From Candidatus Omnitrophota bacterium (lineage in GTDB: Bacteria; Omnitrophota; Gorgyraeia; B26-G9): a stretch of 64,000 nucleotides of DNA. The position numbers and the translations under genes were made by a program. Below are positions 10,787-64,000 of this stretch, piece by piece (within the stretch, counting starts at the first letter, position 1; each line of letters opens with the position of its first letter). The notes below the pieces were generated by a model. It saw only the letters and a list, made by a program, of their open reading frames with translations, did no database searches and had not been told where the DNA came from. The DNA lies in contig JBDRJV010000037.1 of NCBI GenBank assembly GCA_043814605.1, positions 31,899 to 95,898 on the forward strand. Direction: 5' to 3'.

Positions 10787-12253
10787 ATGAAAGTAGTTAT
10801 TGCAAACTCTATAGGTGTTGACAAAAATAACAATTTTATAATTCATTCTCCCAGTCGTTGGTCAGAAGGAGTTAAAAGTAAATCACATTGGTTTGCTTAT
10901 TATCCTTGGGAACTATCCTATTTATCCAGTTTATTAAAAAAAGAAACTGATTTTAATATTAAATTTTTAGATGGTTGTTTGATGCAATGGGATTCAGAAA
11001 CATATTTTTCTAAAATTACAACTATTAATCCAGATGTTTTGATTATGGAAAGTGCAACCAGAATGATTGATGAAAATGTTAATCTTGCTCGGCGCATTAA
11101 ACAAAAATGTCAGGCAACGATAATTTTTGTGGGCCAGCACGCCAGTGCTTTTCCACAAGAATTATTAACCCAGGGTATAGATTATGTTTGTATCGGAGAG
11201 TATGAATATACTGTGCTGGAATTGCTGCAGAATAAGGATAAGAGGCAGATTTTAGGGCTTTATCCTAATCCCAGAAGAGATTTATTAGATATTAACAGTT
11301 TACCCTGGCCTGAGGATTCTGACGTAAAACGTATTGATTATGCATCTCCGGGGGAACCGAGTTCAGAATATCGAGAAATTCAAATGTATGCATCCCGGGG
11401 TTGTCCGGGATCCTGCAGTTTTTGCGTTGCCAGGCACGTTTACTACAACCAGCCGAATTGGCGACCGAGAAAAATAGAAAACATTATTAGCGAAATTATT
11501 TATTTAAAAAATAAATATCCAAAGATGGAAGGAGTTTTTTTTGATGAAGAAGTTCATAATGGCAGAAAAGACTTTATCCTGGATTTAACGCAAGCCATAA
11601 TCGATGCAAAACTGAATAATTTAAAATATGAAGCGATGTGCGATGTAAGATTTTTAGATGAGCAGATCTTAGGAGCAATGAAAAGAGCTGGTTATTACAA
11701 GATCAGAATCGGCATTGAAACAGCAAGCCGGAAAATTATGCAGCAAATTAATAAAAAAATTGATTTAAAACAGGTTTTTAATCTGCTAAAGCTGGCCCAA
11801 AAAATTGGCATAAAAACCTACGGTACTTTTACTTTCGGAGCGCCGGGCTCTAATGAAACTGAGGATAAAAAAACAATTTTACTAATTCAAGATTTAATAA
11901 ATAATGATTATTTAGATAACTTACAGCTTTCAATTTGCACTCCTCAGCCAGGAACTCCTTTTTATGAAAAAGTAAAAGAAAATCATATGCTGCGAAATGA
12001 TTTAACTTTTAATATTTTTGACGGGGGGAATCATTGCATTATAAATTATCCAGATTATCATTATAAAATTATTGAAAAAACTAAACAAAATGCATTATTG
12101 ATGCGAGATCATTTTTTTTTAAAAAATAAAATTCAAAATAAGACTTTTTTCCAATGGATTGGGAATGTTTATAAAAAACATGGAGTTTTCAGAAGCGCGG
12201 CAAAGGCTTTTTTTAGAATATTAACAGAAATTAAATTTTATTTCGTAAAATGA
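10787..12253 (+). CDS. B12-binding-domain radical SAM enzyme (subfamily B)
   Basis: The N-terminal region is Rossmann-like (VLIMESATR..IIFVGQHASAFPQELL..YVCIGEYEYT). It carries the LPWPEDS motif and the radical SAM motif ASRGCPGSCSFCVAR. Confidence 0.8.
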   Translation: MKVVIANSIGVDKNNNFIIHSPSRWSEGVKSKSHWFAYYPWELSYLSSLLKKETDFNIKFLDGCLMQWDSETYFSKITTINPDVLIMESATRMIDENVNLARRIKQKCQATIIFVGQHASAFPQELLTQGIDYVCIGEYEYTVLELLQNKDKRQILGLYPNPRRDLLDINSLPWPEDSDVKRIDYASPGEPSSEYREIQMYASRGCPGSCSFCVARHVYYNQPNWRPRKIENIISEIIYLKNKYPKMEGVFFDEEVHNGRKDFILDLTQAIIDAKLNNLKYEAMCDVRFLDEQILGAMKRAGYYKIRIGIETASRKIMQQINKKIDLKQVFNLLKLAQKIGIKTYGTFTFGAPGSNETEDKKTILLIQDLINNDYLDNLQLSICTPQPGTPFYEKVKENHMLRNDLTFNIFDGGNHCIINYPDYHYKIIEKTKQNALLMRDHFFLKNKIQNKTFFQWIGNVYKKHGVFRSAAKAFFRILTEIKFYFVK

Positions 12254-23387: not shown

Positions 23388-24746
23388 GTGGTAAATAACG
23401 TGAATATCAAAAGAAAAACGCAGAGCCTATGTATTGTTTGTAAACAAAGAGTCCCGGCTGAAGTTTACAAGAAAGACGAAAAAATATTTTTAAAAAAAAT
23501 ATGTCCTGAACATGGAGATATGGAGGTTTTTTTAGGACGAGCGGATTATTATGAATCATTAGATGAGTTCTTTTGTCTTATCCGTACGAATAAAAATAAA
23601 CACATGCCGACTCTTGAGCTTATTGTTAATTTCGATTGTAATATGAATTGTCCGATTTGTTATTTAGGCCCTCAGCGGAAAGAACTAAGCAAATTCTCAC
23701 CGACTCTTAATGAATTAGAAGATTTTATAAAACAAACAAAGTATTATTCTTTTGTCATTTCCGGAGCAGAGGCAACATGCCGGGATGATTTACTGGAAAT
23801 AATTAAATTACTTAAAAAATATGGTAAGACAGTAAGTATTAATACAAATGCTTTAAAATTAGCAGATTATAAATATGCGAAAAAAATGAAAAAAGCTGGG
23901 ATTGACCGTGTTAATATACAGTTTTCCGGTTTTAATGAAAAAGCTGAGAAGATTTTTAGAGGAGAAAATTATATAGAGATTAGGATTCAAGCTATGGAAA
24001 ATCTAAATAAGCTAGGCATCTCTATGGGACTAAATACTCTAATTGCCGGAAGCTTAAATGAGAATGATATAATTAGGGTACTAGAATTTGGCTTAAAATA
24101 TAAATCACTGCGTATGATAAATTTTTCAACATTAATTTTTGTGGGTGAGACAATGGATTATCCTTTAAATTATTACCTAATGCCCGATGATTTAATGATG
24201 CTTGTTGAAAAACAAACAAAAGGGAAAATTAAAAGAGAAAATCTTTATATTTTTAAAAAACTTGAAATTGTTATTTCATCATTTTTAAATAAAGATACTT
24301 GTTTTTATCGTCATGCTTATTTGCTGATCAAAAAAGGAAAAAATTATTTCCCAATAGATAATTTTATAAATCTAAAAAAACTGGAACCATATTTAGAATG
24401 TTATAAAAATCTTTTTAAAAAAAATAAGTTTCTGGGTAAAACCTTTCTGATTGTAATGACTCCATATTTATTGATTATAAATTATAAAATTTTAAAAATT
24501 TTAAGTGAAGTTACAAGAATGATCATATCCTATTTTTTTAAAAGATGGCTTTTCTTGCAGTCTAGCGATATAGTTTATTTACAATTTTCAGCGGTATGTG
24601 ATTTGTACAAAATTGATTATGATTTATTTAAAAGCTGTCAGTGTAAAACTATTTTCTTTTTTGATCGAGAAAATAATAAATTCTTTAAAAAAAGTAAGCC
24701 CATAGAAGATCATTATTGGTTGTTATGGAGAGATCGTGATAATTAA
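23388..24746 (+). CDS. Zinc-ribbon radical SAM enzyme, paralogue 1 of 6 (possibly Tes/GDGT-MAS-like)
   Basis: GTG start after aaggag. The N-terminal motif is CIVC-x20-CPEH. The radical SAM motif is DCNMNCPICY, with ISGAEATCRDD in the GGE position. Conserved extra cysteines occur in DTCFY, AVCD and KSC. Confidence 0.8.
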   Translation: MVNNVNIKRKTQSLCIVCKQRVPAEVYKKDEKIFLKKICPEHGDMEVFLGRADYYESLDEFFCLIRTNKNKHMPTLELIVNFDCNMNCPICYLGPQRKELSKFSPTLNELEDFIKQTKYYSFVISGAEATCRDDLLEIIKLLKKYGKTVSINTNALKLADYKYAKKMKKAGIDRVNIQFSGFNEKAEKIFRGENYIEIRIQAMENLNKLGISMGLNTLIAGSLNENDIIRVLEFGLKYKSLRMINFSTLIFVGETMDYPLNYYLMPDDLMMLVEKQTKGKIKRENLYIFKKLEIVISSFLNKDTCFYRHAYLLIKKGKNYFPIDNFINLKKLEPYLECYKNLFKKNKFLGKTFLIVMTPYLLIINYKILKILSEVTRMIISYFFKRWLFLQSSDIVYLQFSAVCDLYKIDYDLFKSCQCKTIFFFDRENNKFFKKSKPIEDHYWLLWRDRDN

Positions 24747-51757: not shown

Positions 51758-53491
51758 ATGAATTATGCTAAGTATAAGGCTTTTTGCAGAGTAATATATT
51801 GTTATCAAGAATATTGGATTTGGATTGTTTTAGGTATAATAATAAATATTCTAATATTGTTTGTTGTTAATAAGCTTTTAGAAAAGAGTAAGAATTTAAG
51901 CATTAAAAAGTATATAAAAAAAATAAATTTAAATAGAATTGATTATTTATTACTTTTTATGCTAACATTTATTTTTTTTATTTGGAAAATTACTAATATT
52001 AGTAAAGAAAATGTTGATAGTATGGAATCTTTCAACATGCAATTTAATTCTTTATTGAGTACAAATATTATAAAGTTTTTAGATACTTCAATAGTAATTG
52101 CACATAAGTTGATTTATGCAGTTATGCTTAATCTTGTACAAATATTTTGTGCTCCTGAAAATTTAGTTTTTTTGTATAGATTTATTTCTTTTGGTTTTGG
52201 AGTATTATGTTCTTTACTGCTGTTTAAATTTTCAATCAGAGTATTTCAGAATAAATTGATTGCATACCTAGGGTTCATTTTATTCAACTTAAATGCGCTT
52301 TTTTTGTTTTATTGCCGAAGAATTGAAGTTTATTCTATATTTTGTTTTTTTGTATTATTAAGTTTTTATGATTTCTGGAGAATATTTATTGATCGGGATA
52401 AAAATAAGACCTTACGATATGGCATATGGATAATTATTGTATTTTGCTTACATGATACAGGCGTTGTAGTTATTTTTTCGCAGGCTCTTGCTTTATTTTT
52501 TTTAAACAGGAAGCAGCCACTTGAAACTAGAAATTATTTATATTTAAAGTTTATGCAATCGGTACTTGTTTTTGCTTGTTTATTTTTTTTGTTGGGACCT
52601 ATTTTTTGTGCATCAATTATTAGTAATCATTTAATTCTTTACAAAGGTGCTTGGGAAAATAATTTTTATTTAGGTATGGAAAAATTACCGGAACAAATAA
52701 ATACTATGCTGAATTTAATTTTTGGGATGCCCATATTTACGATAGGGCTATTTAGTTTTCCCTTATTTTTTGCAGTTTTTTCGTTAATTAAAAAAAATAA
52801 TAATTTTTTTTGGCTTTTATTAAGCATATTGATATCAAGTATTCTATTTCAGGCAACTTTCATTTATATGTTTTATATTAAAGTTAATGCTTGTTATTTT
52901 AATATTAGGCATTTATTATGGATAGTTCCCTTTATTATCATGATGTATAGTTTTGGTTTTTGTGATTTATGTTTTTTGAGTAATAAAAATTATAAGAAAA
53001 TTTTAGGGTACAGTTTTTTAATTATTATTTTAAGCTCAGGAATTGTGAAATCAAATACTGTTATTTATAGCAATAAAACTCCTGATTACGAGAAAGCATT
53101 TTATTATATTAAAGATAAATTCAAAGATGGAGATTTTTTAGGTTGGCTGTGTTCTTTTACCAGTGATGTATTTTTTATTCACACTAAAAAAAATGATATT
53201 TTTTATGATCATGATAATACCATTTTAGATGAAAGAAGTGCCGGGGTTATATTTAATAATATCGCTTTAAAGCAAAAAAAATTTAAAAGATTTTGGGTGA
53301 TTGTTGCAAAAGAAGATTATTTTGGAGTTGATCATATGAATTTGGAATTTATTGATAAATGCGTTAATTTTTTAAAAAAAGAATTTAAAGAAATTTCTTG
53401 CGTGAAGATGAATAAAATTGATATCTACTTATTTGAATCAACTAGGGAAAGACTGGGGGGTATAATTGAAATTAACAGAAGAATTTTTTAA
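51758..53491 (+). CDS. Polytopic GT-C-type glycosyltransferase (ArnT/PMT_2-like)
   Basis: 577 aa with more than 10 hydrophobic helices, followed by a ~150 aa soluble C-terminal domain. Same overall architecture as the other six GT-C candidates. Architecture-only call. Confidence 0.4.
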   Translation: MNYAKYKAFCRVIYCYQEYWIWIVLGIIINILILFVVNKLLEKSKNLSIKKYIKKINLNRIDYLLLFMLTFIFFIWKITNISKENVDSMESFNMQFNSLLSTNIIKFLDTSIVIAHKLIYAVMLNLVQIFCAPENLVFLYRFISFGFGVLCSLLLFKFSIRVFQNKLIAYLGFILFNLNALFLFYCRRIEVYSIFCFFVLLSFYDFWRIFIDRDKNKTLRYGIWIIIVFCLHDTGVVVIFSQALALFFLNRKQPLETRNYLYLKFMQSVLVFACLFFLLGPIFCASIISNHLILYKGAWENNFYLGMEKLPEQINTMLNLIFGMPIFTIGLFSFPLFFAVFSLIKKNNNFFWLLLSILISSILFQATFIYMFYIKVNACYFNIRHLLWIVPFIIMMYSFGFCDLCFLSNKNYKKILGYSFLIIILSSGIVKSNTVIYSNKTPDYEKAFYYIKDKFKDGDFLGWLCSFTSDVFFIHTKKNDIFYDHDNTILDERSAGVIFNNIALKQKKFKRFWVIVAKEDYFGVDHMNLEFIDKCVNFLKKEFKEISCVKMNKIDIYLFESTRERLGGIIEINRRIF

Positions 53492-53696: not shown

Positions 53697-54290
53697 ATGA
53701 AAAAAATTTATATAATTCTAAATTATTTACTCCAGTTTCTATCCTGTCCGATATCAGCTCATAAAAAATTTATTAGGAAGGAAATTGTTAAAGAAATAAA
53801 TATAAATTTAAAAAAAAATATTTTAGATTTTGGATGTGGTCACGGAATATTTTCTGGTCTTTTTAAAAATACAAATATCAATTATATTGAACTTGATTGT
53901 GATTTAAATTCACTGCTGTTTGCAAAATATATACATCAAAATAACTTATATTTGTGTGCAGGAGAATTGCTGTGTTTTAAGCAGAATATCTTTGATTATA
54001 TTATACTAAATAATGTTCTGCATCATATGGATAAAAAATCAATTATTAAATTATTTGACGAAATCATACGGGTGCTTAAAAATAAGAGAAAAGTTATAAT
54101 AATTGAATTGCTGCCTTTTGAAAAACAAAGAGGATTTTTTTTAAAAATTGTTACCTCTTTAGAAAAAAAAATAAAAAAAATTTCTTATGTTTCTGATGAT
54201 TTTTTAACAGAAATTGCAAAAAAATATTTTAGAAATATTAAAAAATTAGAAGTAAGCCGCAATTTTATTTCTTATATTTTAGAAAACTAG
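53697..54290 (+). CDS. Class I SAM-dependent methyltransferase (small)
   Basis: Motif I is ILDFGCGHGIFS, with ELDCD as the acidic loop and FDYIILNNVLHHM also present. Resembles 3569-4117. Confidence 0.65.
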   Translation: MKKIYIILNYLLQFLSCPISAHKKFIRKEIVKEININLKKNILDFGCGHGIFSGLFKNTNINYIELDCDLNSLLFAKYIHQNNLYLCAGELLCFKQNIFDYIILNNVLHHMDKKSIIKLFDEIIRVLKNKRKVIIIELLPFEKQRGFFLKIVTSLEKKIKKISYVSDDFLTEIAKKYFRNIKKLEVSRNFISYILEN

Positions 54291-54530: not shown

Positions 54531-54971
54531 ATGTTTTATGGCGAATTTGAACATTCATTAGATAAAAAAAGCCGTGTGATTATTCCGGCTAAATTTCGGG
54601 AAGCATTTAAAGAAAATTTTGTCGAAAAATTTTTCGTTACCCGAGGGTTAGATAGCTGTTTGTTTTTATTCACGGAAGAAGAATGGAAAAAACAGGAACA
54701 AAAATTTAAAGCACTTTCTTTTACCAAGCCGGAAGCAAGGAAATTTAATCGTTTGTTTTTTTCTGGTGCCAGTGAAATTATCTGCGACTCACAAGGAAGA
54801 GTTTTGATTCCTCAATACCTTAAGGATTTCGCGCAAATACAAAAGGATGTTGTAATTATTGGAGTTTCTAATCGAATAGAAATCTGGAGTAAAAATCGCT
54901 GGAAGGAATTTTATGAAAATACTAGAGGAACCTTTGAGGATACTGCCGAAAAACTCATGGGTTTGGAATGA
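54531..54971 (+). CDS. mraZ: Transcriptional regulator MraZ
   Basis: MFYGEFEHSLDKKSRVIIPAKFRE. Two DxxxR motifs (DKKSR and DSQGR) lie in duplicated SpoVT/AbrB-like halves. It is the first gene of the dcw order. Confidence 0.95.
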   Translation: MFYGEFEHSLDKKSRVIIPAKFREAFKENFVEKFFVTRGLDSCLFLFTEEEWKKQEQKFKALSFTKPEARKFNRLFFSGASEIICDSQGRVLIPQYLKDFAQIQKDVVIIGVSNRIEIWSKNRWKEFYENTRGTFEDTAEKLMGLE

Positions 54972-54978
54972 AGAGGAA

Positions 54979-55866
54979 ATGGGCCGACACACCCCGGTAA
55001 TGTATGATGAAGTAGTAGCGTACCTGAAGCTTTCACCAGGGAAGGTGATTGTTGATTGTACTTTGGGGGAAGGGGGGCATAGTGAAGGCATACTGAGAAA
55101 GATAACGCCAGGCGGACAGCTCATTGGCATAGATCAGGATGATGATGCTTTGAGTATAACCCGCCTGCGTCTTTCTCGCTTTGAAGATTCTGTGAGGCTA
55201 GTTCATGATAATTTTCAAAATATTAGGGTTATTTTGAAACGTTTGGGATTAGATAAAGTGGATGGTTTTGTTATGGATCTAGGAATATCTTCTTTGCAAT
55301 TATCTGCTCCGGAACGCGGGTTTAGTTTTCAAATCGATGGCCCTCTCAATATGCGTATGGATAAAAAAGCTCAAATTACTGCTTTTGATTTAGTCAATAA
55401 TTTAAGTGAAGAAGAAATTGCGAATGTTATATATATTTTTGGTCAAGAGAGATTTAGCCGTAGAATTGCACGTAACATTGTACAACAGCGCAACAAACAT
55501 GTAATTACAACCACTCAAGAACTGGCTAATTTAATAATCGAATCTGTTCCCAAACATCAAAGATTTAGAAAAATTCATCCGGCAACCAGAACATTTATGG
55601 CGTTACGGATTGCAGTTAACAGAGAATTGGAAGTCTTACAAAGCACACTTAAAGATGCGGTTGATTTACTGAATCCCGGAGGGAGGATTTGTGTGATTTC
55701 TTTTCATTCTTTAGAAGACAGGATTGTAAAGAATGAATTTAAGTCCCAAGCCAGAAATTCCGTAATAAAAATAATTACAAAAAAACCGCTTGTGCCAACA
55801 CAAAACGAAATCCAGGAAAATCATCGTAGTCGTAGTGCAAAACTCCGGGTGGCTGAGAAAATATAA
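54979..55866 (+). CDS. rsmH: 16S rRNA (cytosine1402-N4)-methyltransferase RsmH
   Basis: HTPVMYDEV, DCTLGEGGHSE, DLGISSLQL, FGQERFSRRIA and SFHSLEDRIVK. The track ORF starts at 54913 inside mraZ. ATG 54979 follows the mraZ stop and a gaagagg RBS. Confidence 0.95.
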   Translation: MGRHTPVMYDEVVAYLKLSPGKVIVDCTLGEGGHSEGILRKITPGGQLIGIDQDDDALSITRLRLSRFEDSVRLVHDNFQNIRVILKRLGLDKVDGFVMDLGISSLQLSAPERGFSFQIDGPLNMRMDKKAQITAFDLVNNLSEEEIANVIYIFGQERFSRRIARNIVQQRNKHVITTTQELANLIIESVPKHQRFRKIHPATRTFMALRIAVNRELEVLQSTLKDAVDLLNPGGRICVISFHSLEDRIVKNEFKSQARNSVIKIITKKPLVPTQNEIQENHRSRSAKLRVAEKI

Positions 55867-55898: not shown

Positions 55899-56273
55899 GT
55901 GAGCTTAAAAAAGACACTCATATTTGCTGTAATAACCACTTGTTTATCTATAAGTTATGTTAATCAACAAATTTCTGTGGTTAAACTAAGTTATCAACTT
56001 CGGAGTAAAGAAAAAAACCTGTCTGAACTAATTGACCAAAATAGAATTTTATTATATAATAATGCCAGCCTAAAATCACCACAGTATTTAGCCGGAATGC
56101 TCAAAGAAAATGATCAAGAATTAACATTTCCGGATACTACTGTTGTGGCAAAAGTAAAAATGGTGAGAAAAGATCACAGGCAGCAGGTGAAAACAACGAA
56201 AAGTAACTGGAGAACTAAATTGCTTGATTTGTTTATTCCTAAAGCACAAGCAGCGTTAGATAAAAGACAATAG
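55899..56273 (+). CDS. ftsL: Cell division protein FtsL-like
   Basis: 124 aa with a GTG start after aggggg. It has a single N-terminal TM helix (LIFAVITTCLSISYV) followed by a coiled-coil-like segment. It sits in the canonical position between rsmH and ftsI. Confidence 0.7.
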   Translation: MSLKKTLIFAVITTCLSISYVNQQISVVKLSYQLRSKEKNLSELIDQNRILLYNNASLKSPQYLAGMLKENDQELTFPDTTVVAKVKMVRKDHRQQVKTTKSNWRTKLLDLFIPKAQAALDKRQ

Positions 56274-56335: not shown

Positions 56336-58021
56336 GTGTATAAAAAGGCGCAAAAAATTCGCCTGAGTATAGTTTTTTTCTTTTTTCTTTTAATTCTCCT
56401 AATTATTCTAGTTCGTCTGCTGAATATTCAGGTTCTGAATAATCAGCATTATTTAGAGCTAGCTGATTCGCAACATCATCTAACCTTAACTCTTTATCCG
56501 CAAAGAGGATTAATCTATGACCGAAATCTGAAGGTTTTGGCGTTGAGTTTAAAAGTTTTTTCTGTGTATGCCGAGCCAAGATTAATTGATAATAAATTAG
56601 AAGTAGCGCAAAAATTGGCGGATCTATTAGATTTAGATTATGATAAAACTTTAACCCAGCTTCAAAAGGATAAATCATTTGTTTGGATAAAAAGAAGGAT
56701 TGAGCAAAATCAGGCACAAGCAGTTAATGATTTAAAATTGTATGGAGTGGGATTATTAAAGGAAAATAAACGCTATTATCCGAATAATGAATTAGCAGCG
56801 CATGTATTAGGATTTACGGGAATTGATGATTCCGGGCTGGAAGGACTGGAACTAGAGTATGATTCATATTTAAAAGGAGAATCAGGTTATCGGTCGTTAC
56901 TGCGTGATGCTAAGCAAAGGATGTTGCCTGCTTTTGAGTATGAGTATGTTCCGGCAATGGATGGATATAATTTAGTCTTAACAATTGATCAGATAATTCA
57001 ACATATTGTTGAGGAAGAGTTAAATAAAGCATTTGATAAAAATCAGGCAAAGGGAGCTTCCGTACTTGTTATGAATCCTGAAAACGGAGAGATTTTTGCT
57101 TTAGCTAATCGCCCGGGGTATGATTTAAATTTATTTGAAACTGCAACTTCAGACCAAAGACGCAATCGGGCAGTGTGTGATTATTTTGAACCTGGTTCTA
57201 CCTTTAAAATTATTACAGCCACCGCAGCTTTGTCCGAAAAAGCTGTTGAACTTGATGAGGTATTTTTTTGCGAAAATGGAACTTATCAAATTTCCCGGCA
57301 TACATTGCATGATCATCGGCCACACGGGGATTTAACATTTGTTGAGGTTATTGAAAAATCAAGTAATATTGGTACAGTAAAAGTCGCGCAAAAACTGGGA
57401 GCAGAAGTATTATATAAATATATTAAAAATTTTGAATTTGCGGAAAAAACTAGTATTGATTTATCCGGGGAAACTGCCGGGTTTTTAAGGCCGGTAGCTG
57501 GTTGGTCAAAATTATCAATTGCAGCTATTCCCATTGGACATGAAATTGGAGTTTCAGTTTTACAAATGGCCAAAGCTATGGCGGTAATTGCCAATGGCGG
57601 ATATTTAGTTAAACCGCATCTAGTAAATAAAATAATTGATAATAACCAGCAAATCATAAAGGAATTTGATTATTCACAAAAAAAATCCATTATTTCACCG
57701 GATATTGCTAAAAAAATGCAGGAAATTTTAAAAGGAGTTGTTGAACGCGGTACGGCTAAAAAAGCAAAAATTGATGGATATACAGCTGCAGGAAAAACAG
57801 GTACAGCCCAAAAATTAAATCCTCAAGGCGGGTACTCACATGATCTGTTTATCGCATCTTTTATCGGATTTGCTCCGGTCAAAAATCCAAAGGTTGTAAT
57901 TGCGGTTGTTTTTGATGAACCCAAGCCGGTTTATTATGGCGGGGTTGTGTGTGCTCCAATTTTTAAAAATATAGCCGAAAAAGTGTTAAGATATATGAAT
58001 ACAGAAAAAGAAAGTAAATAA
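56336..58021 (+). CDS. ftsI: Penicillin-binding protein (class B transpeptidase, FtsI/PBP3-like)
   Basis: N-terminal TM anchor. SxxK (GSTFK), SxN (SSN) and KTG (KTGTA) motifs appear in the correct order. Canonical dcw position. Confidence 0.9.
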   Translation: MYKKAQKIRLSIVFFFFLLILLIILVRLLNIQVLNNQHYLELADSQHHLTLTLYPQRGLIYDRNLKVLALSLKVFSVYAEPRLIDNKLEVAQKLADLLDLDYDKTLTQLQKDKSFVWIKRRIEQNQAQAVNDLKLYGVGLLKENKRYYPNNELAAHVLGFTGIDDSGLEGLELEYDSYLKGESGYRSLLRDAKQRMLPAFEYEYVPAMDGYNLVLTIDQIIQHIVEEELNKAFDKNQAKGASVLVMNPENGEIFALANRPGYDLNLFETATSDQRRNRAVCDYFEPGSTFKIITATAALSEKAVELDEVFFCENGTYQISRHTLHDHRPHGDLTFVEVIEKSSNIGTVKVAQKLGAEVLYKYIKNFEFAEKTSIDLSGETAGFLRPVAGWSKLSIAAIPIGHEIGVSVLQMAKAMAVIANGGYLVKPHLVNKIIDNNQQIIKEFDYSQKKSIISPDIAKKMQEILKGVVERGTAKKAKIDGYTAAGKTGTAQKLNPQGGYSHDLFIASFIGFAPVKNPKVVIAVVFDEPKPVYYGGVVCAPIFKNIAEKVLRYMNTEKESK

Positions 58022-59527
58022 ATGTTAGCTTCAGAAATAATAAAACTTCTAAAAATTAAGCCCCAGGCTAAAAATTTTGTAGATTTTGAAGTCAAAGGCA
58101 TTAGTATTGATTCTCGTAATGTCGCAAATGATTTTTGTTTTATCGCTCAAGACGGAACTAAAACAAACGGATATGAATTTATTCAAGCGGCGATAGAAAA
58201 AGGGGCACGTTTGATTATTTATCCTGAATTTTATCCTGAACCTAAAATTAATTCCTTAGAATTAGCAAAGAAGACAATTTTCCTAAAAACTGATAATCTG
58301 CGCAAAGTTACCGGGCTAATTGCGGCGGAATTTTTCCAGAGGCCTTCCCGTAATTTACAAATGATTGGGGTAACAGGCACTAACGGAAAAACAACAGTTA
58401 CTTTTTTTATTGAACATTTACTCAAAAAAAATCAAATTAAAACGGGCATGATTTCTACTGTCTATTACAAAATTGATGATCATATTATTGATGCGACCCA
58501 TACTACCCCGGATGCGATAAAACTACAGCAGTTATTTTTTAATATGATTAATCATAATATTTCCCATTGTGTTATGGAAGTTTCCTCCCATGCTTTAGAC
58601 CAGAAAAGGGTTTCAGAAATTGATTTCCAATGTGCAGTGTTTACGAATTTGAGTCAAGATCATTTAGATTACCATGTGGATATGGAAAATTATTTTAAGA
58701 CAAAAGCACAATTGTTTAAACGTCTTAGTAAAAATAGTTTTGCCGTAATAAATACGGATGATCCTTGCGGTATCCGGCTTAAAAAAATTACTCAAGCAAA
58801 AATTATTGGTTATGCGGTTATGGATAAAAATGCAACTGTCCGGGCACAAAATATAGTTTTTGATTTAAATTCAACAACTTTTGATATAATCACACCCGCA
58901 GGTATACTGCCGGTTAAGACTAAATTTATCGGCCGCTATAATATTTATAATATTTTAGCTTGTATTTGTGTAGGGCTTGCCCAAAATATTGAATTAAATT
59001 CTATTGTTAAAGCAATCCAAACCATGGATTCTGTTCCGGGAAGATTAGAAAGATTATCAAATAATAACATTTTTGAGATTTTTGTTGATTATGCTCATAC
59101 GGATGATGCATTAACTAAAGTTTTGACAACTTTAAAAGAACTAAAACCGCATAAGATTATTACAGTTTTTGGCTGCGGGGGAAATCGAGATACAAAAAAA
59201 AGGCCGCTTATGGGTAAAGCCGCAAGTTTGTTGTCAGATTTTTTGATTTTAACTAATGATAATCCGCGTAATGAAAACCCGGAAAAAATCATTGCAGATA
59301 TTCAGTCAGGGTTTGAGGTTAGTTTTAAAAATTTTGAAGTAATTTTAGACAGAAAAAAAGCAATCGAAAAAGCAATCACAAGAGCGCAACAGGATGACTT
59401 TATTTTAGTTGCCGGTAAAGGACATGAAAATTACCAAATTTTTGGTGATAAGAAAATTGATTTTGATGATCGAAAAATAATAAAGGATCTCCTGCTGACT
59501 AGCCCCAAGCTTACCTTAGGAGAATGA
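58022..59527 (+). CDS. murE: UDP-N-acetylmuramoyl-L-alanyl-D-glutamate--2,6-diaminopimelate ligase
   Basis: GVTGTNGKTT P-loop and DYAHTDDAL. The DNPR motif (TNDNPRNE) is characteristic of meso-DAP-adding MurE. Position is after ftsI. Confidence 0.9.
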   Translation: MLASEIIKLLKIKPQAKNFVDFEVKGISIDSRNVANDFCFIAQDGTKTNGYEFIQAAIEKGARLIIYPEFYPEPKINSLELAKKTIFLKTDNLRKVTGLIAAEFFQRPSRNLQMIGVTGTNGKTTVTFFIEHLLKKNQIKTGMISTVYYKIDDHIIDATHTTPDAIKLQQLFFNMINHNISHCVMEVSSHALDQKRVSEIDFQCAVFTNLSQDHLDYHVDMENYFKTKAQLFKRLSKNSFAVINTDDPCGIRLKKITQAKIIGYAVMDKNATVRAQNIVFDLNSTTFDIITPAGILPVKTKFIGRYNIYNILACICVGLAQNIELNSIVKAIQTMDSVPGRLERLSNNNIFEIFVDYAHTDDALTKVLTTLKELKPHKIITVFGCGGNRDTKKRPLMGKAASLLSDFLILTNDNPRNENPEKIIADIQSGFEVSFKNFEVILDRKKAIEKAITRAQQDDFILVAGKGHENYQIFGDKKIDFDDRKIIKDLLLTSPKLTLGE

Positions 59528-60939
59528 TGGTTACACCGGTTGTAAGCCGGGAACGGAAAGATATGTTTAGACTTAATGAAATAGTTAAATGGACAAACGC
59601 ACAATCAGTTAATATGAGTTCAGATAGGCCTATCTGCGGAATTTCGATTGATTCGCGTACAATAAAGAAGGCAGAATTATTTGTGGCGATTTGTGGTGAT
59701 AAATTTAATGGGCATGATTATTTATTTGAGGCAGAAGAAAAAAGAGCAAGTGCTGTTTTAATCAATAAAAAATGGGCAGATTTCCACCCGGATCAGATTA
59801 ACGGGCTTTCCTGTCCGGTAATTTTAGTGGAAAATACAAATAACGCATTGATGGATATGGCAAAAGGACACCGGAAAAAATTTAATATTCCAGTAATTGC
59901 TGTAACTGGATCAAACGGGAAAACCACAACCAAAGAAATGCTCGCAGAAGTTCTCAGTGCCCGATTTAAGGTATTAAAGAGCAAGGCTTCTTTTAATAAT
60001 AATATTGGTGTTCCGCTGAGTATCCTCGAACTTAATGCTGGACATGATGCTGCTGTATTAGAATTAGGCATGAATCATCCCGGTGAAATTCGCATTTTGA
60101 GTTCAATTGTTAGGCCAAATATTGCAATTATCACTAATGTTGCGGCAGCTCATCTCGGATTTTTCAACAGCGTTGATGAGATTATCAGTGCTAAATGTGA
60201 ATTAATTGAAAAAGCAAATGAACTTGATTTAGTGATTTCTAATGCTGATTGCCTAGATTTGTTTCATAAAATTAAAGAACATATTTTATCTGCTGTAGGG
60301 ATAGGAATTAAAAATAAGTGCTCTTACCAGGCATCCAATGTTATCAGCCGTCAAGAAGGGGTAGCTTTTACCTTGAACTTAAAGGACACATTTAGGTTGA
60401 ATTTATTGGGTGAGCATAATGTTTACAATGCGTTGTGCGCGATTGCGGTTGCGGATCATTTTAAAATTGATATGAGTATAGTACGGGAAAGACTAAAAGA
60501 AATAAAACCGGCTAAAATGAGAATGGAAAGAATTAATTTTCAAGGTATAGAAATAATTGCCGATTGCTATAATGCTAACCCCCAGTCTGTAACCGCAGCG
60601 ATTGAAACGCTTGCGGCGATGAGTTATAAGAAAAGACGGATATTTATTTTAGGCGATATGCTTGAATTAGGAACACATAGTGATAAATTCCATGCACAAA
60701 TCGGAGAACTTTTTACGGATATAAGAATAGATAAGCTGGTTACAATCGGTGAAAAAGCAGCGTTAAGCGCAGAGGTTGCGCTTAAATTAGGAAATAAAAA
60801 AAATAATGTGTTTATGTATGATTCCGTAGAATTAGCTCAGACAGAAATATTTCAAATGCTAAAAGAGGGGGATGTGGTTTTAATCAAAGGATCACGCCTA
60901 ATGCAATTAGAAAAACTTATTCCTGGTTATAAATTATAG
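59524..60939 (+). CDS. murF: UDP-N-acetylmuramoyl-tripeptide--D-alanyl-D-alanine ligase
   Basis: AVTGSNGKTTTKEM, LELGMNHPGEI, DCYNANP and GDMLELG. ATGA overlap with murE. An alternative start is at 59563 (MFRLNEI). Confidence 0.9.
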   Translation: MMVTPVVSRERKDMFRLNEIVKWTNAQSVNMSSDRPICGISIDSRTIKKAELFVAICGDKFNGHDYLFEAEEKRASAVLINKKWADFHPDQINGLSCPVILVENTNNALMDMAKGHRKKFNIPVIAVTGSNGKTTTKEMLAEVLSARFKVLKSKASFNNNIGVPLSILELNAGHDAAVLELGMNHPGEIRILSSIVRPNIAIITNVAAAHLGFFNSVDEIISAKCELIEKANELDLVISNADCLDLFHKIKEHILSAVGIGIKNKCSYQASNVISRQEGVAFTLNLKDTFRLNLLGEHNVYNALCAIAVADHFKIDMSIVRERLKEIKPAKMRMERINFQGIEIIADCYNANPQSVTAAIETLAAMSYKKRRIFILGDMLELGTHSDKFHAQIGELFTDIRIDKLVTIGEKAALSAEVALKLGNKKNNVFMYDSVELAQTEIFQMLKEGDVVLIKGSRLMQLEKLIPGYKL

Positions 60940-60953
60940 ATAGGGATAGGAAA

Positions 60954-61658
60954 ATGTTTCTTATGCGATATTTCATAAAAAAAATTCTGACATTAATTTT
61001 AGTTTTTTTATTTTTAGGAGTGTTTGATAAAAGTTTTGCTGAAGATTTATCAGAATATTTTCCTCTAGCTATAGGCAATGAATGGCATTATGAGCAAAAT
61101 TCAACTGATGATTTGTTTATTGTAAAAGCAGAAAAAGCTGCTTCTAATCATTTCTTTAATAATCAAGATATAATAAAGCTTGTTAATAGCGAATTAAGCT
61201 CAATTTATTTACAAAAAACGATAAATGGGATTATATTCTTAGGAAACTCTTCTGTAAAAAGTGATTTTAATTTTTATAATAAGAAACCGTTAATGTTTCT
61301 ACCTTTTAACAAAAAATATTATAAATATGGAATTATGGAAGAAGAAACAGAAATTTATATGCCGGAAAATAATTCTGACAATGTAGCTGAAATTAAGTTG
61401 AATGTCAAAGTGTGTGGAAAGGAAAACGTGTTCGTAAAAGCAGGAGATTTTTTTAATTGCTATAAATTAATTTCTACTATTACCATCTATAACAAAATTA
61501 ATAATTTTATTTATATTTTTACTGAATATGGCTGGTATGGAAAAGGGGTGGGAAAGGTAAAATATGTTTTAAAATTATCTTTTTTAAACCAGGGGCAAAT
61601 TGATACTCAAACCCAACTTTTTGAACTTAAGGAATGTTTTATTACCAGTAATCATTAA
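60954..61658 (+). CDS. Secreted hypothetical protein inserted between murF and mraY
   Basis: Signal peptide-like N-terminus (ILTLILVFLFLGVFDKSFAED). Collinear blocks are shared with 18132-18968. No known dcw function. Confidence 0.45.
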   Translation: MFLMRYFIKKILTLILVFLFLGVFDKSFAEDLSEYFPLAIGNEWHYEQNSTDDLFIVKAEKAASNHFFNNQDIIKLVNSELSSIYLQKTINGIIFLGNSSVKSDFNFYNKKPLMFLPFNKKYYKYGIMEEETEIYMPENNSDNVAEIKLNVKVCGKENVFVKAGDFFNCYKLISTITIYNKINNFIYIFTEYGWYGKGVGKVKYVLKLSFLNQGQIDTQTQLFELKECFITSNH

Positions 61659-61681
61659 AATATTAGCAAAGGTTACTTGTT

Positions 61682-63130
61682 ATGAATAAAAGAAAAAAAA
61701 TTTTAATTGTACTAGGTCTGCTAGGAAGCGTTATTTGTTTTATTTGCTCAGATTTGTTTTTTATGAATTTATCTTTTTTTCTGATTGATAATTTTCAGAA
61801 AAAATTAGATAGTTATGTGAATGCAGTGAATTTTGAATTAGCAAGTAATAAATATCAATTTTTAGGAGGGAACAGAGAAAAATACTTATTAAAAGACCAG
61901 AATAATAACTTATGGCTTTTTAAGGTCACAGATGATTCTACAGTTGATAGAGTAGTTTTTTTTAATAAAATTATTATTTTTTTGGGAGTGGAAACTCCGC
62001 TGCTTTGCCGATATGAAATGTATATAAATAATATTAAGAAAAGAGGGTATCTTCAGAGTTTTTTAAAAAAATATAAAGATCCTGTAAATAAGCTTATGGA
62101 AAAAGATGATTTTAGTAAAAGAATCTATCCGAAAATTGTAAGAAATGAGCTTCTCGCCTGGATTTTTTTTATGAAAATTTCTCAGAATATAATTGATGAT
62201 AAAACTCAAATTTATTTTATTGATTTAGATAATGCATTTGCTTTAAAAAATAAAGTTAAAAACAATGAGCCTAGTGATAAAGATTTAAAATACCTAGAAT
62301 CTTTCTTCAGCATATTAGAAGGAGACAATAAAAAGTTTATTTATTCATTCGTAGATTGTTTATCCATGTTGAATAAAGACTATTTATTAAATCAGATGAA
62401 AAAAGAAGTAAAAACAGCTAAGGGGCATTTTTTTGTGGACATCAAACATTTTATAAATCGAAAAAATAAGCTAGGTACTTTTTGTAAGACATTGGAAGAT
62501 AATGATATTTTTTTTTATAACAGATTTTTTTATAAGATGAATGTTTTGAAATGTTTATTTAGAAAATTTGGAAGTCATTCGATGCGAATTGGTGATAAAA
62601 AAAACAAGGGGAATCATTCGATTGCTGTAATTGGATCTTCTGATTGTTGGAATTATTTTAATAAAAATTGTAATTATAAAATAATTAATGGGGTATCGCA
62701 AAAAGAACTTTCTATTATTCGCAAACAGATAATTAGCCAACTTTTAGTGATAAGAATGAGTAAGGCTTTAGTTGAGGAAAAACTGGCGGCAACAATTTAT
62801 ATCATGCAGTTTAATGCTTTTTTAAATTATTTTAAAAACTCAAATATTCCTGATAATGATGGCGTTTACCCGCCATTTTTTTTTAGTGAATCGATTATTC
62901 AAGTAGTTCAAAGTGTAGATTCATTTGTAAATTTGAAAAATATTGAAGAGCATTATTTCTTTAAAAAATTTAAATATACTAATTATTTAAGCTATGAGCC
63001 AGGAGAAAAGGCTTATATTTATGGATTAATTAATAGGCTGCAGGGAAATAACCGCGAAGCTTTAAATTTTTTTAACCAGGCTTTAAATAATCAATATGCT
63101 ACGGAAGAAATACAGTATATAATAAATTAA
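61682..63130 (+). CDS. Membrane-anchored hypothetical protein (possible kinase-like core, TPR-like C-terminus) inserted between murF and mraY
   Basis: 482 aa with an N-terminal TM helix (ILIVLGLLGSVICFICSDLFF). GGNREKYLLKD..LWLFKV and IYFIDLDNAF loosely resemble the glycine-loop/lysine and DFG-like elements of PI3/4K- or HipA-like kinases. The C-terminus YIYGLINRLQGNNREALNFFNQALN is TPR-like. Confidence 0.35.
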   Translation: MNKRKKILIVLGLLGSVICFICSDLFFMNLSFFLIDNFQKKLDSYVNAVNFELASNKYQFLGGNREKYLLKDQNNNLWLFKVTDDSTVDRVVFFNKIIIFLGVETPLLCRYEMYINNIKKRGYLQSFLKKYKDPVNKLMEKDDFSKRIYPKIVRNELLAWIFFMKISQNIIDDKTQIYFIDLDNAFALKNKVKNNEPSDKDLKYLESFFSILEGDNKKFIYSFVDCLSMLNKDYLLNQMKKEVKTAKGHFFVDIKHFINRKNKLGTFCKTLEDNDIFFYNRFFYKMNVLKCLFRKFGSHSMRIGDKKNKGNHSIAVIGSSDCWNYFNKNCNYKIINGVSQKELSIIRKQIISQLLVIRMSKALVEEKLAATIYIMQFNAFLNYFKNSNIPDNDGVYPPFFFSESIIQVVQSVDSFVNLKNIEEHYFFKKFKYTNYLSYEPGEKAYIYGLINRLQGNNREALNFFNQALNNQYATEEIQYIIN

Positions 63131-63176
63131 GAAATTAAATTTAATTGTGAATGAAGTTATAAGTTAGGAGATACAT

Positions 63177-64000
63177 CATGTTTTATCATTGGCTTTATCC
63201 TTTGCGCGAATATTTTTTCGGGTTCAATGTTTTTAAATATATTACTTTTCGTGCTGCGGGAAGTGCTGTAACTGCGTTTATTCTTAGTATAATGATGGGA
63301 AAATTTGTTATTCAACTGCTTAAAAAATTTAATATCGGTGAATCAGTACGAAAGGATAAATACTGCGCTACGCTTTATGAGCATCATAAAGAAAAGGAAG
63401 GTACCCCCACAATGGGCGGGGTTCTGATTTTGCTGGTTGTTCTGATTGCAGTATTATTATGGGCTAATCTTTCTAATAAGTATATTTGGATTGTTTTATT
63501 TGCAACGTTGTGGCTGGGAGCAGTGGGGTTTATTGATGATTATATTAAATTAACTCAGAAAAATTCCCGCGGTCTTACCGCAACCGTAAAATTAACCGGC
63601 CAATTAATACTAGGTATTGTTGTGGGATTTATTATTTATTATGATCCTTATTTGGGGGATCAATTGAATATTCCTTTTTTTAAAAACTTTGTTGTGCATC
63701 TGGGATTTATCTATATATTTTTTTCTGCACTTGTAATTATCGGAACTTCTAATGCCGTAAATCTTACAGATGGCTTGGATGGTTTAGCGATTGGGTGTGT
63801 TTTAATTGTGGCGATAACCTACAGCGGGATGAGTTATTTGACTGGCCATTTTAAATTTTCTCAATATTTACAAATGAATTATATCCCCGGAGTGGGAGAA
63901 TTAACAATTTTCTGTACCGCTGTTTTTGGCGCGGGATTAGGGTTTCTCTGGTACAATTGCCATCCGGCGGATGTGTTTATGGGAGATACAGGGGCTTTAG
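63177..64000 (+). CDS. mraY: Phospho-N-acetylmuramoyl-pentapeptide transferase MraY (3' end beyond window)
   Basis: Not in the ORF track because no stop lies within the window. ATG 63177 sits 6 nt after the aggaga RBS. My translation is MFYHWLYPLREYFFGFNVFKYITFRAAGSAVTAFILS...HKEKEGTPTMGG...NAVNLTDGLDGLA, which contains hallmark MraY motifs. Confidence 0.9.

Follow-up and report, generated by a model that had tools for sequence, protein, structure and literature searches.

The junction between murF and mraY is among the most stable gene adjacencies of bacteria, and the two genes are adjacent in almost all bacteria other than those described here. The dcw cluster of Bacillus carries lineage-specific genes, spoVD and spoVE, which are paralogues of core cell-wall enzymes. 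The HipA/CtkA/HipT-type kinases and the type II PI4-kinases possess a catalytic loop of DxHxxN or DRxxxN type, and the loop of HipA is DxHxxN. The Fam20 proteins are eukaryotic and act in the ATP-containing lumen of the Golgi. To our knowledge, the DUF3108-like family has no established function. Proteins of the DUF3108 type are described with a YmcC-type beta-barrel fold (PMC4364669). In the literature found on DUF3108, neither a kinase-fold gene partner nor a dcw location is mentioned. Two genes found between murF and mraY in a Candidatus Omnitrophota bacterium, ORF1 and ORF2, are compared here with these systems. Omnitrophota is an uncultured phylum of ultra-small and probably host-dependent bacteria.

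The window, the whole stretch of 64,000 nucleotides which was analysed, contains murF (59524..60939, + strand) as the upstream boundary of the insert. The murF product, UDP-MurNAc-tripeptide--D-Ala-D-Ala ligase, scored 408.6 bits against TIGR01143 (cut-off 288.6) and also matched the Mur_ligase, Mur_ligase_M and Mur_ligase_C domains. The downstream boundary is the 5' part of mraY (63178..64000, + strand), which runs off the window; its product scored 245 bits against TIGR00445 (cut-off 192) and also matched MraY_sig1 and Glycos_transf_4, and an AGGAG is situated 8 nt 5' of its ATG. ORF1 (60954..61658, + strand) codes for a predicted exported DUF3108-like protein of 234 aa and ORF2 (61682..63130, + strand) for a protein of 482 aa, predicted to be anchored in the membrane, which belongs to an undescribed family and combines an atypical kinase fold with a TPR-like tail. 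A sequence-only reading of this DNA had reported that two same-strand genes split murF from mraY, and this is confirmed, both ORFs being intact and the gaps short. It gave the murF-ORF1 and ORF1-ORF2 gaps correctly as 14 and 23 bp, but the ORF2-mraY gap is 47 bp and not 46 bp. Its premise that murF and mraY are normally neighbours also holds, as none of the 71 other dcw loci carrying both genes had an inserted gene between them (estimated gap -49 to 441 bp). At 25% GC, ~9% of random codons would by our own estimate be stops, which makes an ORF of 482 codons effectively impossible by chance. ORF1 and ORF2 both have homologues in other genomes, and with the length of the ORFs this rules them out as artefactual.

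The order murF, ORF1 homologue, ORF2 homologue, mraY recurs in L082/L083, an NCBI Omnitrophica MAG, and in L089. These two are among the three closest available genomes; the third, L001, is without the insert, and it was found neither there nor in any of the more distant dcw loci compared. The window, L082/L083, L089 and L001 formed one clade in 200 of 200 bootstraps. The synteny survey proposed by the sequence-only reading thus showed the site and gene order shared by three of four clade genomes, in agreement with its suggestion of lineage-specific genes. ORF1-ORF2 is a conserved two-gene module, which one clade of Candidatus Omnitrophota carries as a fixed insert between murF and mraY. In another locus, L098, which lies outside dcw, homologues of ORF1 and ORF2 are also adjacent and overlap by 1 nt, hence the pair behaves as a module and not as an accident of dcw. 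Among the insert-bearing genomes ORF1 and ORF2 are 24-27% identical, whereas the core dcw proteins of the same genomes are 48-85% identical (MraZ ~84%, RsmH 72%, FtsI 67%, MurF 48%), which indicates that the insertion is old. One further locus, L088, has essentially the same sequence as the window; the core common to both differs by one mismatch, the contig ends do not align, and its near-identity means that no dN/dS is obtainable from it. A near-identical contig is present in ERR2191545/PRJEB10519.

The distribution of the pair can also be read as that of a neutral passenger, which came from the adjacent glycan locus by drift or recombination, is tolerated within the operon and has no functional link to the cell wall. 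L001 belongs to the same clade and lacks the pair, so the module is dispensable in the clade; the pair has diverged much more rapidly than the dcw core (~25% against 48-85% identity); dcw has a glycan locus as direct neighbour in the window, L001 and L082, and such loci are the usual residence of the ORF2 family. Against this, position and order are kept in three genomes which have diverged to ~48% MurF identity, and presence of the same pair at the same site in two other clade genomes argues that it is not a passenger. Decay in relatives, which had been named beforehand as the mark of a passenger, was not seen, as the ORFs are intact and retain the family-invariant residues at ~25% identity. 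The insert has 25.5% GC and a GC3 of 0.20-0.22, inside the 0.16-0.31 range of the other window genes, so its composition is not foreign. A mobile element, defence island or foreign island was rejected as well, since besides this native composition the repeats were only AT-rich chance ones and no mobile-element genes were present. Searches against PHROG (phage) and PADLOC (defence) families returned no significant matches. Taken with all this, the passenger explanation appears unlikely. No paralogue of ORF1 or ORF2 was found elsewhere in the window.

Several sequence features point to the pair as a member of the dcw operon. All four genes are on one strand, the gaps are short and without intrinsic terminator, and the position is kept in relatives. 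Scanning of the window revealed no terminator-like site in the three insert gaps, and the corresponding gaps of L082 and L089 have none either; the spacer from ORF2 to mraY is also unstructured (z +2.1). An isolating terminator, which the earlier reading had named as evidence against co-expression, is therefore missing from the three gaps. ORF1-ORF2 probably share a transcript with the dcw genes. Inside ORF2, the scan identified a terminator-like hairpin followed by a T-run at codons 393-402 (62858..62886, + strand). It folds at -11 kcal/mol (z -2.98), and a similar hairpin is present at the homologous position of the L082 ORF2 homologue.

ORF1 starts with a signal-peptide-like sequence of residues 1-29 (60954..61040, + strand), MFLMRYFIKKILTLILVFLFLGVFDKSFA, followed by EDL after a putative cleavage site behind SFA, which was judged by eye. 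This N-terminus agrees with the earlier suggestion that the 234-aa protein is exported, and the signal peptide lacks a lipobox Cys. The hydrophobic N-terminus is kept in the ORF1 homologues of L082, L089 and L098. These homologues align from Met4 of ORF1, and ATG 60963 is a possible alternative start. The NCBI product of ORF1 has 212 aa, is 100% identical over 91% of ORF1 and appears to begin at GTG 61020; with such a start the conserved hydrophobic N-terminus would be lost. PF21347 (DUF3108_like) matched the window ORF1 with 23.8 bits (E 4.7e-5), below the gathering cut-off of 27, and the L082 homologue with 31.2 bits, above the same cut-off, while the L089 homologue gave no PF21347 match. 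The window, L082 and L089 proteins align over the full length, and a profile of the three sequences matched PDB 4fvs, a 'putative lipoprotein', with E 1.2e-3. A word-seeded search with ORF1 returned only its own NCBI entry. Judged from these similarities, ORF1 is a probable member of the DUF3108-like family, with predicted export. Its homologues adjoin ORF2 homologues in L082/L083, L089 and L098.

ORF2 is composed of a single N-terminal anchor, an atypical protein-kinase-like domain, a helical region and a TPR-like tail. It starts with MNKRKK, and the KRKK is followed by a 19-residue hydrophobic segment, the membrane anchor of residues 7-25 (61700..61756, + strand; mean hydropathy 2.49). The kinase-like core spans approximately residues 55-243 (61844..62410, + strand) and contains the invariant Gly63, Glu66, Lys67, Lys81 and Asp181. 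The C-terminal TPR-like helical repeat occupies about residues 440-482 (62999..63127, + strand), with the family motif GE(D)EYIxGL, and ends with GYAxxEI. A single-sequence AF2 model of ORF2 had a pLDDT of 37.7 and was of no use. The predicted structure has a bilobal kinase fold of the atypical type represented by PI4K-II, HipA/CtkA, CotH and Fam20, and CtkA and MavQ, two secreted bacterial kinases, are among its structural neighbours.

Residue conservation was analysed across 18 sequences of the ORF2 family, which was recovered by an exhaustive HMMER search. Lys81 (in WLFK) and Asp181 (in IDLxN) are invariant in 18/18 sequences, and Lys67 is invariant as well. From the secondary-structure order of the model, and not from a residue-level superposition, Lys81 was assigned to beta3, the place of the ATP-binding Lys, and Asp181 to the DFG position, the place of the metal-binding Asp. 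The residues with presumed roles in nucleotide or phosphate binding, namely a G-x-x-E-K loop, the beta3 Lys and a DFG-like Asp, are hence kept in the family. The catalytic-loop Asp/Asn pair is not, since the stretch from the alphaE-like helix to the beta6-like strand contains no invariant Asp. Position 165 is Asp/Glu in 10/18 and position 166 in 8/18 members, the window protein has Lys-Ile there, and at position 168 Glu or Gln stands in place of Asn. ORF2 may possess kinase activity. The window ORF2 matched none of the curated kinase families of Pfam and NCBIfam. In PDB sequence searches, the profile of the family alignment A1 gave only chance annexin matches and P0008 gave none. Comparison of A1 with E. 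coli HipA by hhalign was not significant (probability 0.8%), leaving a lead at motif level only. Word-seeded searches returned nothing for ORF2 and only P0021 for A1, a metagenome scan with the family alignment A2 identified only five loci, and the full-length ORF2 product was absent from both protein collections searched.

The anchor of ORF2 is flanked by +4 charges on the N-side and by +1/-1 on the C-side. The same bias, with +2 to +5 charges on the N-flank, is present in 17/17 full-length family members. The description of the 482-aa protein as membrane-anchored therefore stands, with a predicted N-in orientation and the bulk of the protein outside. By this positive-inside pattern, which is the basis of the assignment, the ORF2 domain would be situated in the periplasm, where ORF1 is also predicted to be exported. 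ATP is not expected in the bacterial periplasm, so any kinase activity of ORF2 there needs another donor, or no such activity exists. Alternatively, ORF2 could be an active kinase facing the cytoplasm, acting on a lipid such as polyprenol or on protein Ser/Thr and regulating or feeding MraY and peptidoglycan synthesis, with ORF1 as exported partner or sensor. The charge bias of all 17 full-length members points to the opposite orientation, a divergent paralogue in L098 has an N-terminus which by eye looks like a signal peptide, the family has no conserved Asp in the catalytic loop, ORF1 as the partner is exported and most ORF2 relatives are located away from mraY. A cytoplasm-facing kinase is accordingly rather improbable. 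Likewise, a HipBA-like toxin-antitoxin pair is effectively refuted by the domain content and is hardly credible. ORF1 is an exported DUF3108-like protein and not an HTH antitoxin, ORF2 is membrane-anchored with a predicted periplasm-facing domain and lacks the HipA catalytic loop, and PADLOC gave no match. A regulator of the eSTK/PASTA type was ruled out, as there is no Pkinase or PASTA match.

Most relatives of ORF2 are not beside mraY. They were found in loci with radical-SAM, DegT, PMT_2, LPG_synthase_TM and GT2 genes (L092, L090, L094, L095, L099, L100 and L101), which encode radical-SAM enzymes, aminotransferases, GT2 proteins, flippase-like proteins and GT-C (PMT_2) glycosyltransferases. 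GT-C enzymes use polyprenyl-phosphate-linked sugars on the membrane's outer face. The same kind of glycan locus is situated directly upstream of dcw in the window. Some family members occur in TPR-rich or unrelated settings (L081, L084 and L102). The sequence-only reading had proposed 'envelope or division factors'; of the two, an envelope factor is better backed, because most other ORF2-family members are in glycan-modification loci, and division is less so. Both proteins carry export signals and the structural neighbours CtkA and MavQ are secreted kinases, so secreted or surface factors aimed at host or prey were also considered, with ORF2 as a kinase effector like those of Legionella or Helicobacter. 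An episymbiotic or predatory life is ascribed to Omnitrophota, and bioRxiv 10.64898/2026.06.07.730766, with 176 complete genomes of the phylum, discusses its host-dependent lifestyle. An effector role is nevertheless very improbable, given that the hydrophobic anchor looks uncleaved in most ORF2-family members, secretion-system genes are absent nearby and the neighbours are housekeeping cell-wall or glycan genes.

The explanation which we favour, with a probability of roughly 0.55, is that ORF1-ORF2 form a periplasmic accessory module for the assembly of a polyprenyl-phosphate-linked envelope glycan or of peptidoglycan. As an accessory unit of such assembly, ORF2 would bind, and possibly phosphorylate, a phosphate-bearing glycan which is lipid-linked or polymer-bound, its TPR tail would dock partners, and ORF1 would handle the substrate or product of ORF2 in the periplasm. 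The position of the pair between murF and mraY would tie its expression to the synthesis of lipid I, which draws on the same undecaprenyl-phosphate pool; it is the gene neighbourhood which suggests this link to undecaprenyl phosphate. A more specific version is that the ORF2 family comprises active periplasm-facing kinase-fold enzymes or phospho-lipid sensors, which with a beta-barrel ORF1 act on undecaprenyl-(pyro)phosphate-linked intermediates or on glycan attached to peptidoglycan, the dcw wiring in this clade coupling envelope decoration to lipid I/II synthesis. This version is unlikely.

A conserved insertion between murF and mraY would mark genes whose dosage has been linked by selection to the synthesis of cell-wall precursors. 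ORF2 defines an undescribed family of predicted atypical kinase fold and predicted extracytoplasmic location, recurrent in radical-SAM and GT-C glycan loci. An active family, or one which binds lipid-linked phosphate, would be a new component of envelope biogenesis and also an entry point to the glycan loci of Omnitrophota, which are large and uncharacterised. If ORF2 is only a scaffold, the insert is still a useful synteny marker for the clade. Current annotation is poor for both genes, the NCBI ORF1 being truncated and full-length ORF2 missing from the two protein collections.

Among the described families, the DUF3108 and DUF3108-like proteins (PF11306/PF21347; PDB 3fzx and 4fvs) are closest to ORF1; its L082 homologue matches PF21347 above the cut-off, the three-sequence profile matches 4fvs, and the ORF1 homologues are likewise predicted exported envelope proteins. 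The window copy differs in scoring under the Pfam threshold and in having no lipobox Cys. For ORF2, the CotH kinases (PF08757; the Bacillus spore-coat kinase, PDB 5jda) gave no match at E <= 1 with the window protein and 16/17 other members, and the single match among the 18 sequences scored 23.0 bits, below the gathering cut-off of 23.8. Compared with CotH, ORF2 possesses in addition an N-terminal membrane anchor and a TPR-like tail, its catalytic Asp is not conserved, and the context of its family is dcw or glycan loci and not the spore coat. ORF2 has no significant sequence similarity to the HipA/CtkA/HipT-type kinases or the type II PI4-kinases, which with it belong to the PI3/4K-like atypical type, and differs from them in its predicted periplasmic location, in having no antitoxin partner and in the absence of a DxHxxN or DRxxxN loop. 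Sequence similarity is also missing to the Fam20 kinases of the secretory pathway (Fam20C, and Fam20B, the glycosaminoglycan xylosylkinase). In genomic organization, ORF1-ORF2 resemble spoVD and spoVE as extra same-strand genes among mur and fts genes, inherited within a lineage. Unlike spoVD and spoVE, they are unrelated to known cell-wall enzymes and split the otherwise invariant junction of murF and mraY.

In one clade of Omnitrophota, murF and mraY are separated by an intact and conserved two-gene module, whose genes are on the same strand and encode an exported and a membrane-anchored protein. The sequence of the window is rich in AT, and all its real-looking genes of at least 110 aa are on the + strand. 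On this strand, the dcw cluster is composed of mraZ (54531-54971), rsmH (54913-55866 as the longest ORF), ftsL (55899-56273), ftsI (56336-58021), murE (58022-59527), murF (59524-60939), ORF1 (60954-61658, 234 aa), ORF2 (61682-63130, 482 aa) and mraY (from 63178 past the window end). Both murF and mraY scored above the NCBIfam equivalog/subfamily cut-off. ORF1 and ORF2 are genuine genes, since chance ORFs of such length are impossible at 25% GC and homologues were found for both. The sequence-only reading had described same-strand ORFs with short gaps, which stands except for one figure: the gaps measure 14, 23 and 47 bp, of which the last had been given as 46. The longest ORF of rsmH overlaps the 3' end of mraZ by 59 nt (54913-54971). 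As the rsmH call of a relative, L082, is 295 aa long and starts beyond mraZ, the real rsmH start in the window is probably a downstream Met.

The murF-mraY junction was surveyed in 80 loci fetched with MurF, among which 71 hold both genes. The estimated gap ranged from -49 to 441 bp and no inserted gene was found in any of the 71, in agreement with the earlier claim that the two genes are normally adjacent. Among the species representatives, the closest genome is L001 ('PVC group bacterium', MurF 48% identical), where the gap is 43 bp without the insert. The order murF, DUF3108-like gene, ORF2 homologue and mraY is identical to the window in L082/L083 (GCA_018895275.1, Candidatus Omnitrophica) and L089 (SDBU01000102.1), so that the lineage-specific insertion proposed before was found at the same site within one clade. 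Core proteins of these two relatives are approximately 84% (MraZ), 72-73% (RsmH), 67% (FtsI), 52-54% (MurE) and 48% (MurF) identical to those of the window. ORF1 and ORF2 show only 24-27% identity to their homologues, yet align end to end. L089 also carries a second non-canonical dcw gene, a radical-SAM/SPASM gene of 358 aa between mraY and murD (10959-12035).

To place these genomes, a neighbour-joining tree of RsmH, MurE and MurF was constructed (1158 columns, 200 bootstraps). The window, L001, L082 and L089 formed one group in 200/200 bootstraps. L001 was not clearly basal, and the split in which the window branches first appeared in 126/200. Presence of the pair in the clade ancestor followed by loss from L001 would be the more parsimonious, though weakly resolved, history. 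Under either history, the insertion is older than the split between genomes with MurF proteins that today share about 48% identity, and it has remained intact. ORF1 and ORF2 have 25.5% GC against 33-39% in the dcw core. Their GC3 (0.20-0.22) is inside the whole-window range (0.16-0.31) and neighbouring poorly conserved genes are equally AT-rich; hence the insert is compositionally native and not foreign. No repeats were found flanking it, and PHROG and PADLOC searches gave no significant match.

Profiles of both families were run against all ORFs of the fetched loci, and ORF1-like genes were found only beside ORF2-like genes. One such pair is in L098, a locus outside dcw, where a 218-aa ORF1 homologue (E 2.4e-25) overlaps by 1 base the start of the ORF2 homologue P0007, with a second, divergent ORF2-like gene upstream. 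The two genes are thus a module which moves together independently of dcw.

The three gaps of the window contain no terminator-like site, nor do the corresponding gaps in L082 and L089, leaving the proposed co-transcription with dcw without an isolating terminator. The spacer between ORF2 and mraY lacks structure, and AGGAG is found 8 nt 5' of the mraY ATG. A terminator-like hairpin with a T-run is situated inside ORF2, about 250 nt before the stop (62858-62886, +; -11 kcal/mol, z -3.0). A similar one is at the homologous alignment position in L082 (11192-11222, +; -15.5 kcal/mol, z -3.3), while the L089 homologue has no such internal hairpin. Possible explanations are an attenuator preceding mraY and a chance effect of Phe codons.

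ORF1 has a signal-peptide-like N-terminus without lipobox Cys, conserved in its homologues, which align from Met4. The product deposited at NCBI, attributed to a Candidatus Omnitrophota MAG, is 212 aa long; it would begin at GTG 61020, so the conserved signal peptide would be missing. By profile similarity, ORF1 is probably DUF3108-like: against Pfam DUF3108_like (cut-off 27) the window protein scored 23.8 bits and the L082 copy 31.2 bits, with no match for the L089 copy, and a three-sequence profile matched the 'putative lipoprotein' PDB 4fvs (E 1.2e-3). DUF3108 proteins are described as beta-barrel proteins of the envelope with the YmcC fold (PMC4364669).

ORF2 had no match in Pfam and NCBIfam, nor in a word-seeded search of 5.8 billion proteins. 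Exhaustive HMMER search of 1.84 billion cluster representatives gave 29 matches (E <= 0.001), most of them 450-520 aa long and aligned over the full length with 21-27% identity. The full-length product is absent from both protein collections searched; the sole entry is a 124-aa fragment, P0002. Its source is a contig of 751 bp in another metagenome (ERZ928008), and this contig matches window positions 62640-63260 except for one mismatch. Another member, P0012 (MBA4405131.1), is labelled 'Nanoarchaeum sp.' at NCBI, probably a binning error as every other named member is from Omnitrophota. The AlphaFold2 model built with the HMMER-derived alignment (pLDDT 81.5, pTM 0.84) showed the fold of an atypical kinase. 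Its structural neighbours were PI4K type II alpha (13.1), actin-fragmin kinase (12.6), CtkA (12.4), MavQ (12.4), Fam20 kinases (12.2-12.3), HipA-like kinases (10.2-11.9) and CotH (11.6). The family member P0008 reached 23.0 bits on Pfam CotH (cut-off 23.8).

Invariant residues of the family include Gln59, Gly63, Glu66, Lys67, Trp78, Lys81, Asn116, Gly122 and Asp181. From the order of secondary-structure elements in the model, Lys81 is the predicted beta3 lysine and Asp181 (IDLxN) the predicted DFG-like aspartate. Non-significant hhalign alignment with E. coli HipA placed G63xxE66K67 on the P-loop G152AQEK156 and Lys81 on Lys181; this correspondence is a lead only. A HipBA-like toxin-antitoxin pair is effectively excluded. 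The catalytic loop is unconserved: positions 165/166 are acidic in only about half of the family and Lys-Ile in the window protein, and Glu or Gln occupies position 168, a site of Asn in related kinases. Conserved invariant residues along with an unconserved loop suggest that the family keeps a predicted phosphate-/nucleotide-binding site and lacks a canonical catalytic base.

In all 17 full-length members, the residues N-terminal to a single hydrophobic segment provide +2 to +5 charges and are hardly ever acidic, and the C-terminal flank is more acidic. Under the positive-inside rule, this pattern predicts a periplasmic location of the large domain. The divergent L098 paralogue has a signal-peptide-like start, read by eye, and ORF1 is likewise predicted to be exported. 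An active cytoplasmic kinase is quite unlikely beside this charge bias and the unconserved loop. A host-directed effector, which could equally be exported, is very unlikely for a pair residing in dcw.

The ORF2 family occurs beside ORF1 in dcw (window, L082/L083, L089) and outside it (L098). In L091/L092, L090, L094, L095/L096, L099, L100 and L101, it is found, often as tandem paralogues, with genes for B12-binding and SPASM radical-SAM proteins, DegT aminotransferases, methyltransferases, epimerases, GT2, LPG_synthase_TM flippase-like and PMT_2 (GT-C) proteins. TPR-rich or SGNH neighbours were found in L084-87/L093 and L102, and an unrelated context in L081. Two family members often share a glycan locus as paralogues, in tandem or one gene apart (L094 5560-8682, L092 5390-9428, L099 709-4849, L098 906-4386). 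In L090 and L092 a member is directly 3' of the flippase-like gene.

A similar same-strand envelope-glycan locus of about 53 kb (837-54290) is directly upstream of dcw in the window. It contains at least four PMT_2 (GT-C) genes, several GT2 genes, a Wzy_C+TPR protein and many B12-binding radical-SAM paralogues. A Cys-rich N-terminus recurs in similar form in six or seven paralogues; scanning of one of them (23388-24746) identified a radical-SAM enzyme that carries an HMPTM-type Zn-ribbon. GT2 and Wzy_C genes adjoin mraZ in L001 and L082 too. In the window, a 577-aa polytopic membrane protein without Pfam match (51758-53491) and a small SAM methyltransferase (53697-54290) separate the Wzy_C gene from mraZ. 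As the Wzy_C gene is directly 5' of mraZ in L001 and L082, these two genes are a further lineage-specific difference at the dcw edge. Given this proximity, ORF1 and ORF2 might be a neutral passenger out of the glycan locus. The sequence-only reading expected a passenger to be absent from all relatives and decayed; the pair is instead kept intact in two other genomes, and this explanation is unlikely.

GT-C enzymes use polyprenyl-phosphate sugars on the membrane's outer face, and MraY draws on the same undecaprenyl-phosphate carrier. In the preferred reading, a periplasmic envelope-glycan role, both proteins would act in the periplasm. ORF2 would bind, or less probably phosphorylate, a phosphate-bearing lipid-linked or polymer-bound glycan, its TPR tail may recruit partners, and ORF1 may handle the same ligand. 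Residence in dcw would couple their dosage to lipid I synthesis. The broken murF-mraY junction is unusually stable and a kinase fold predicted to face the periplasm is odd. The organism is uncultured. Full-text literature searches gave no account of this murF-mraY insertion, and none of kinase-fold proteins forming a family within the dcw clusters of Omnitrophota. Lineage-specific genes within dcw clusters are known from other phyla, and atypical kinase folds are an already known superfamily.
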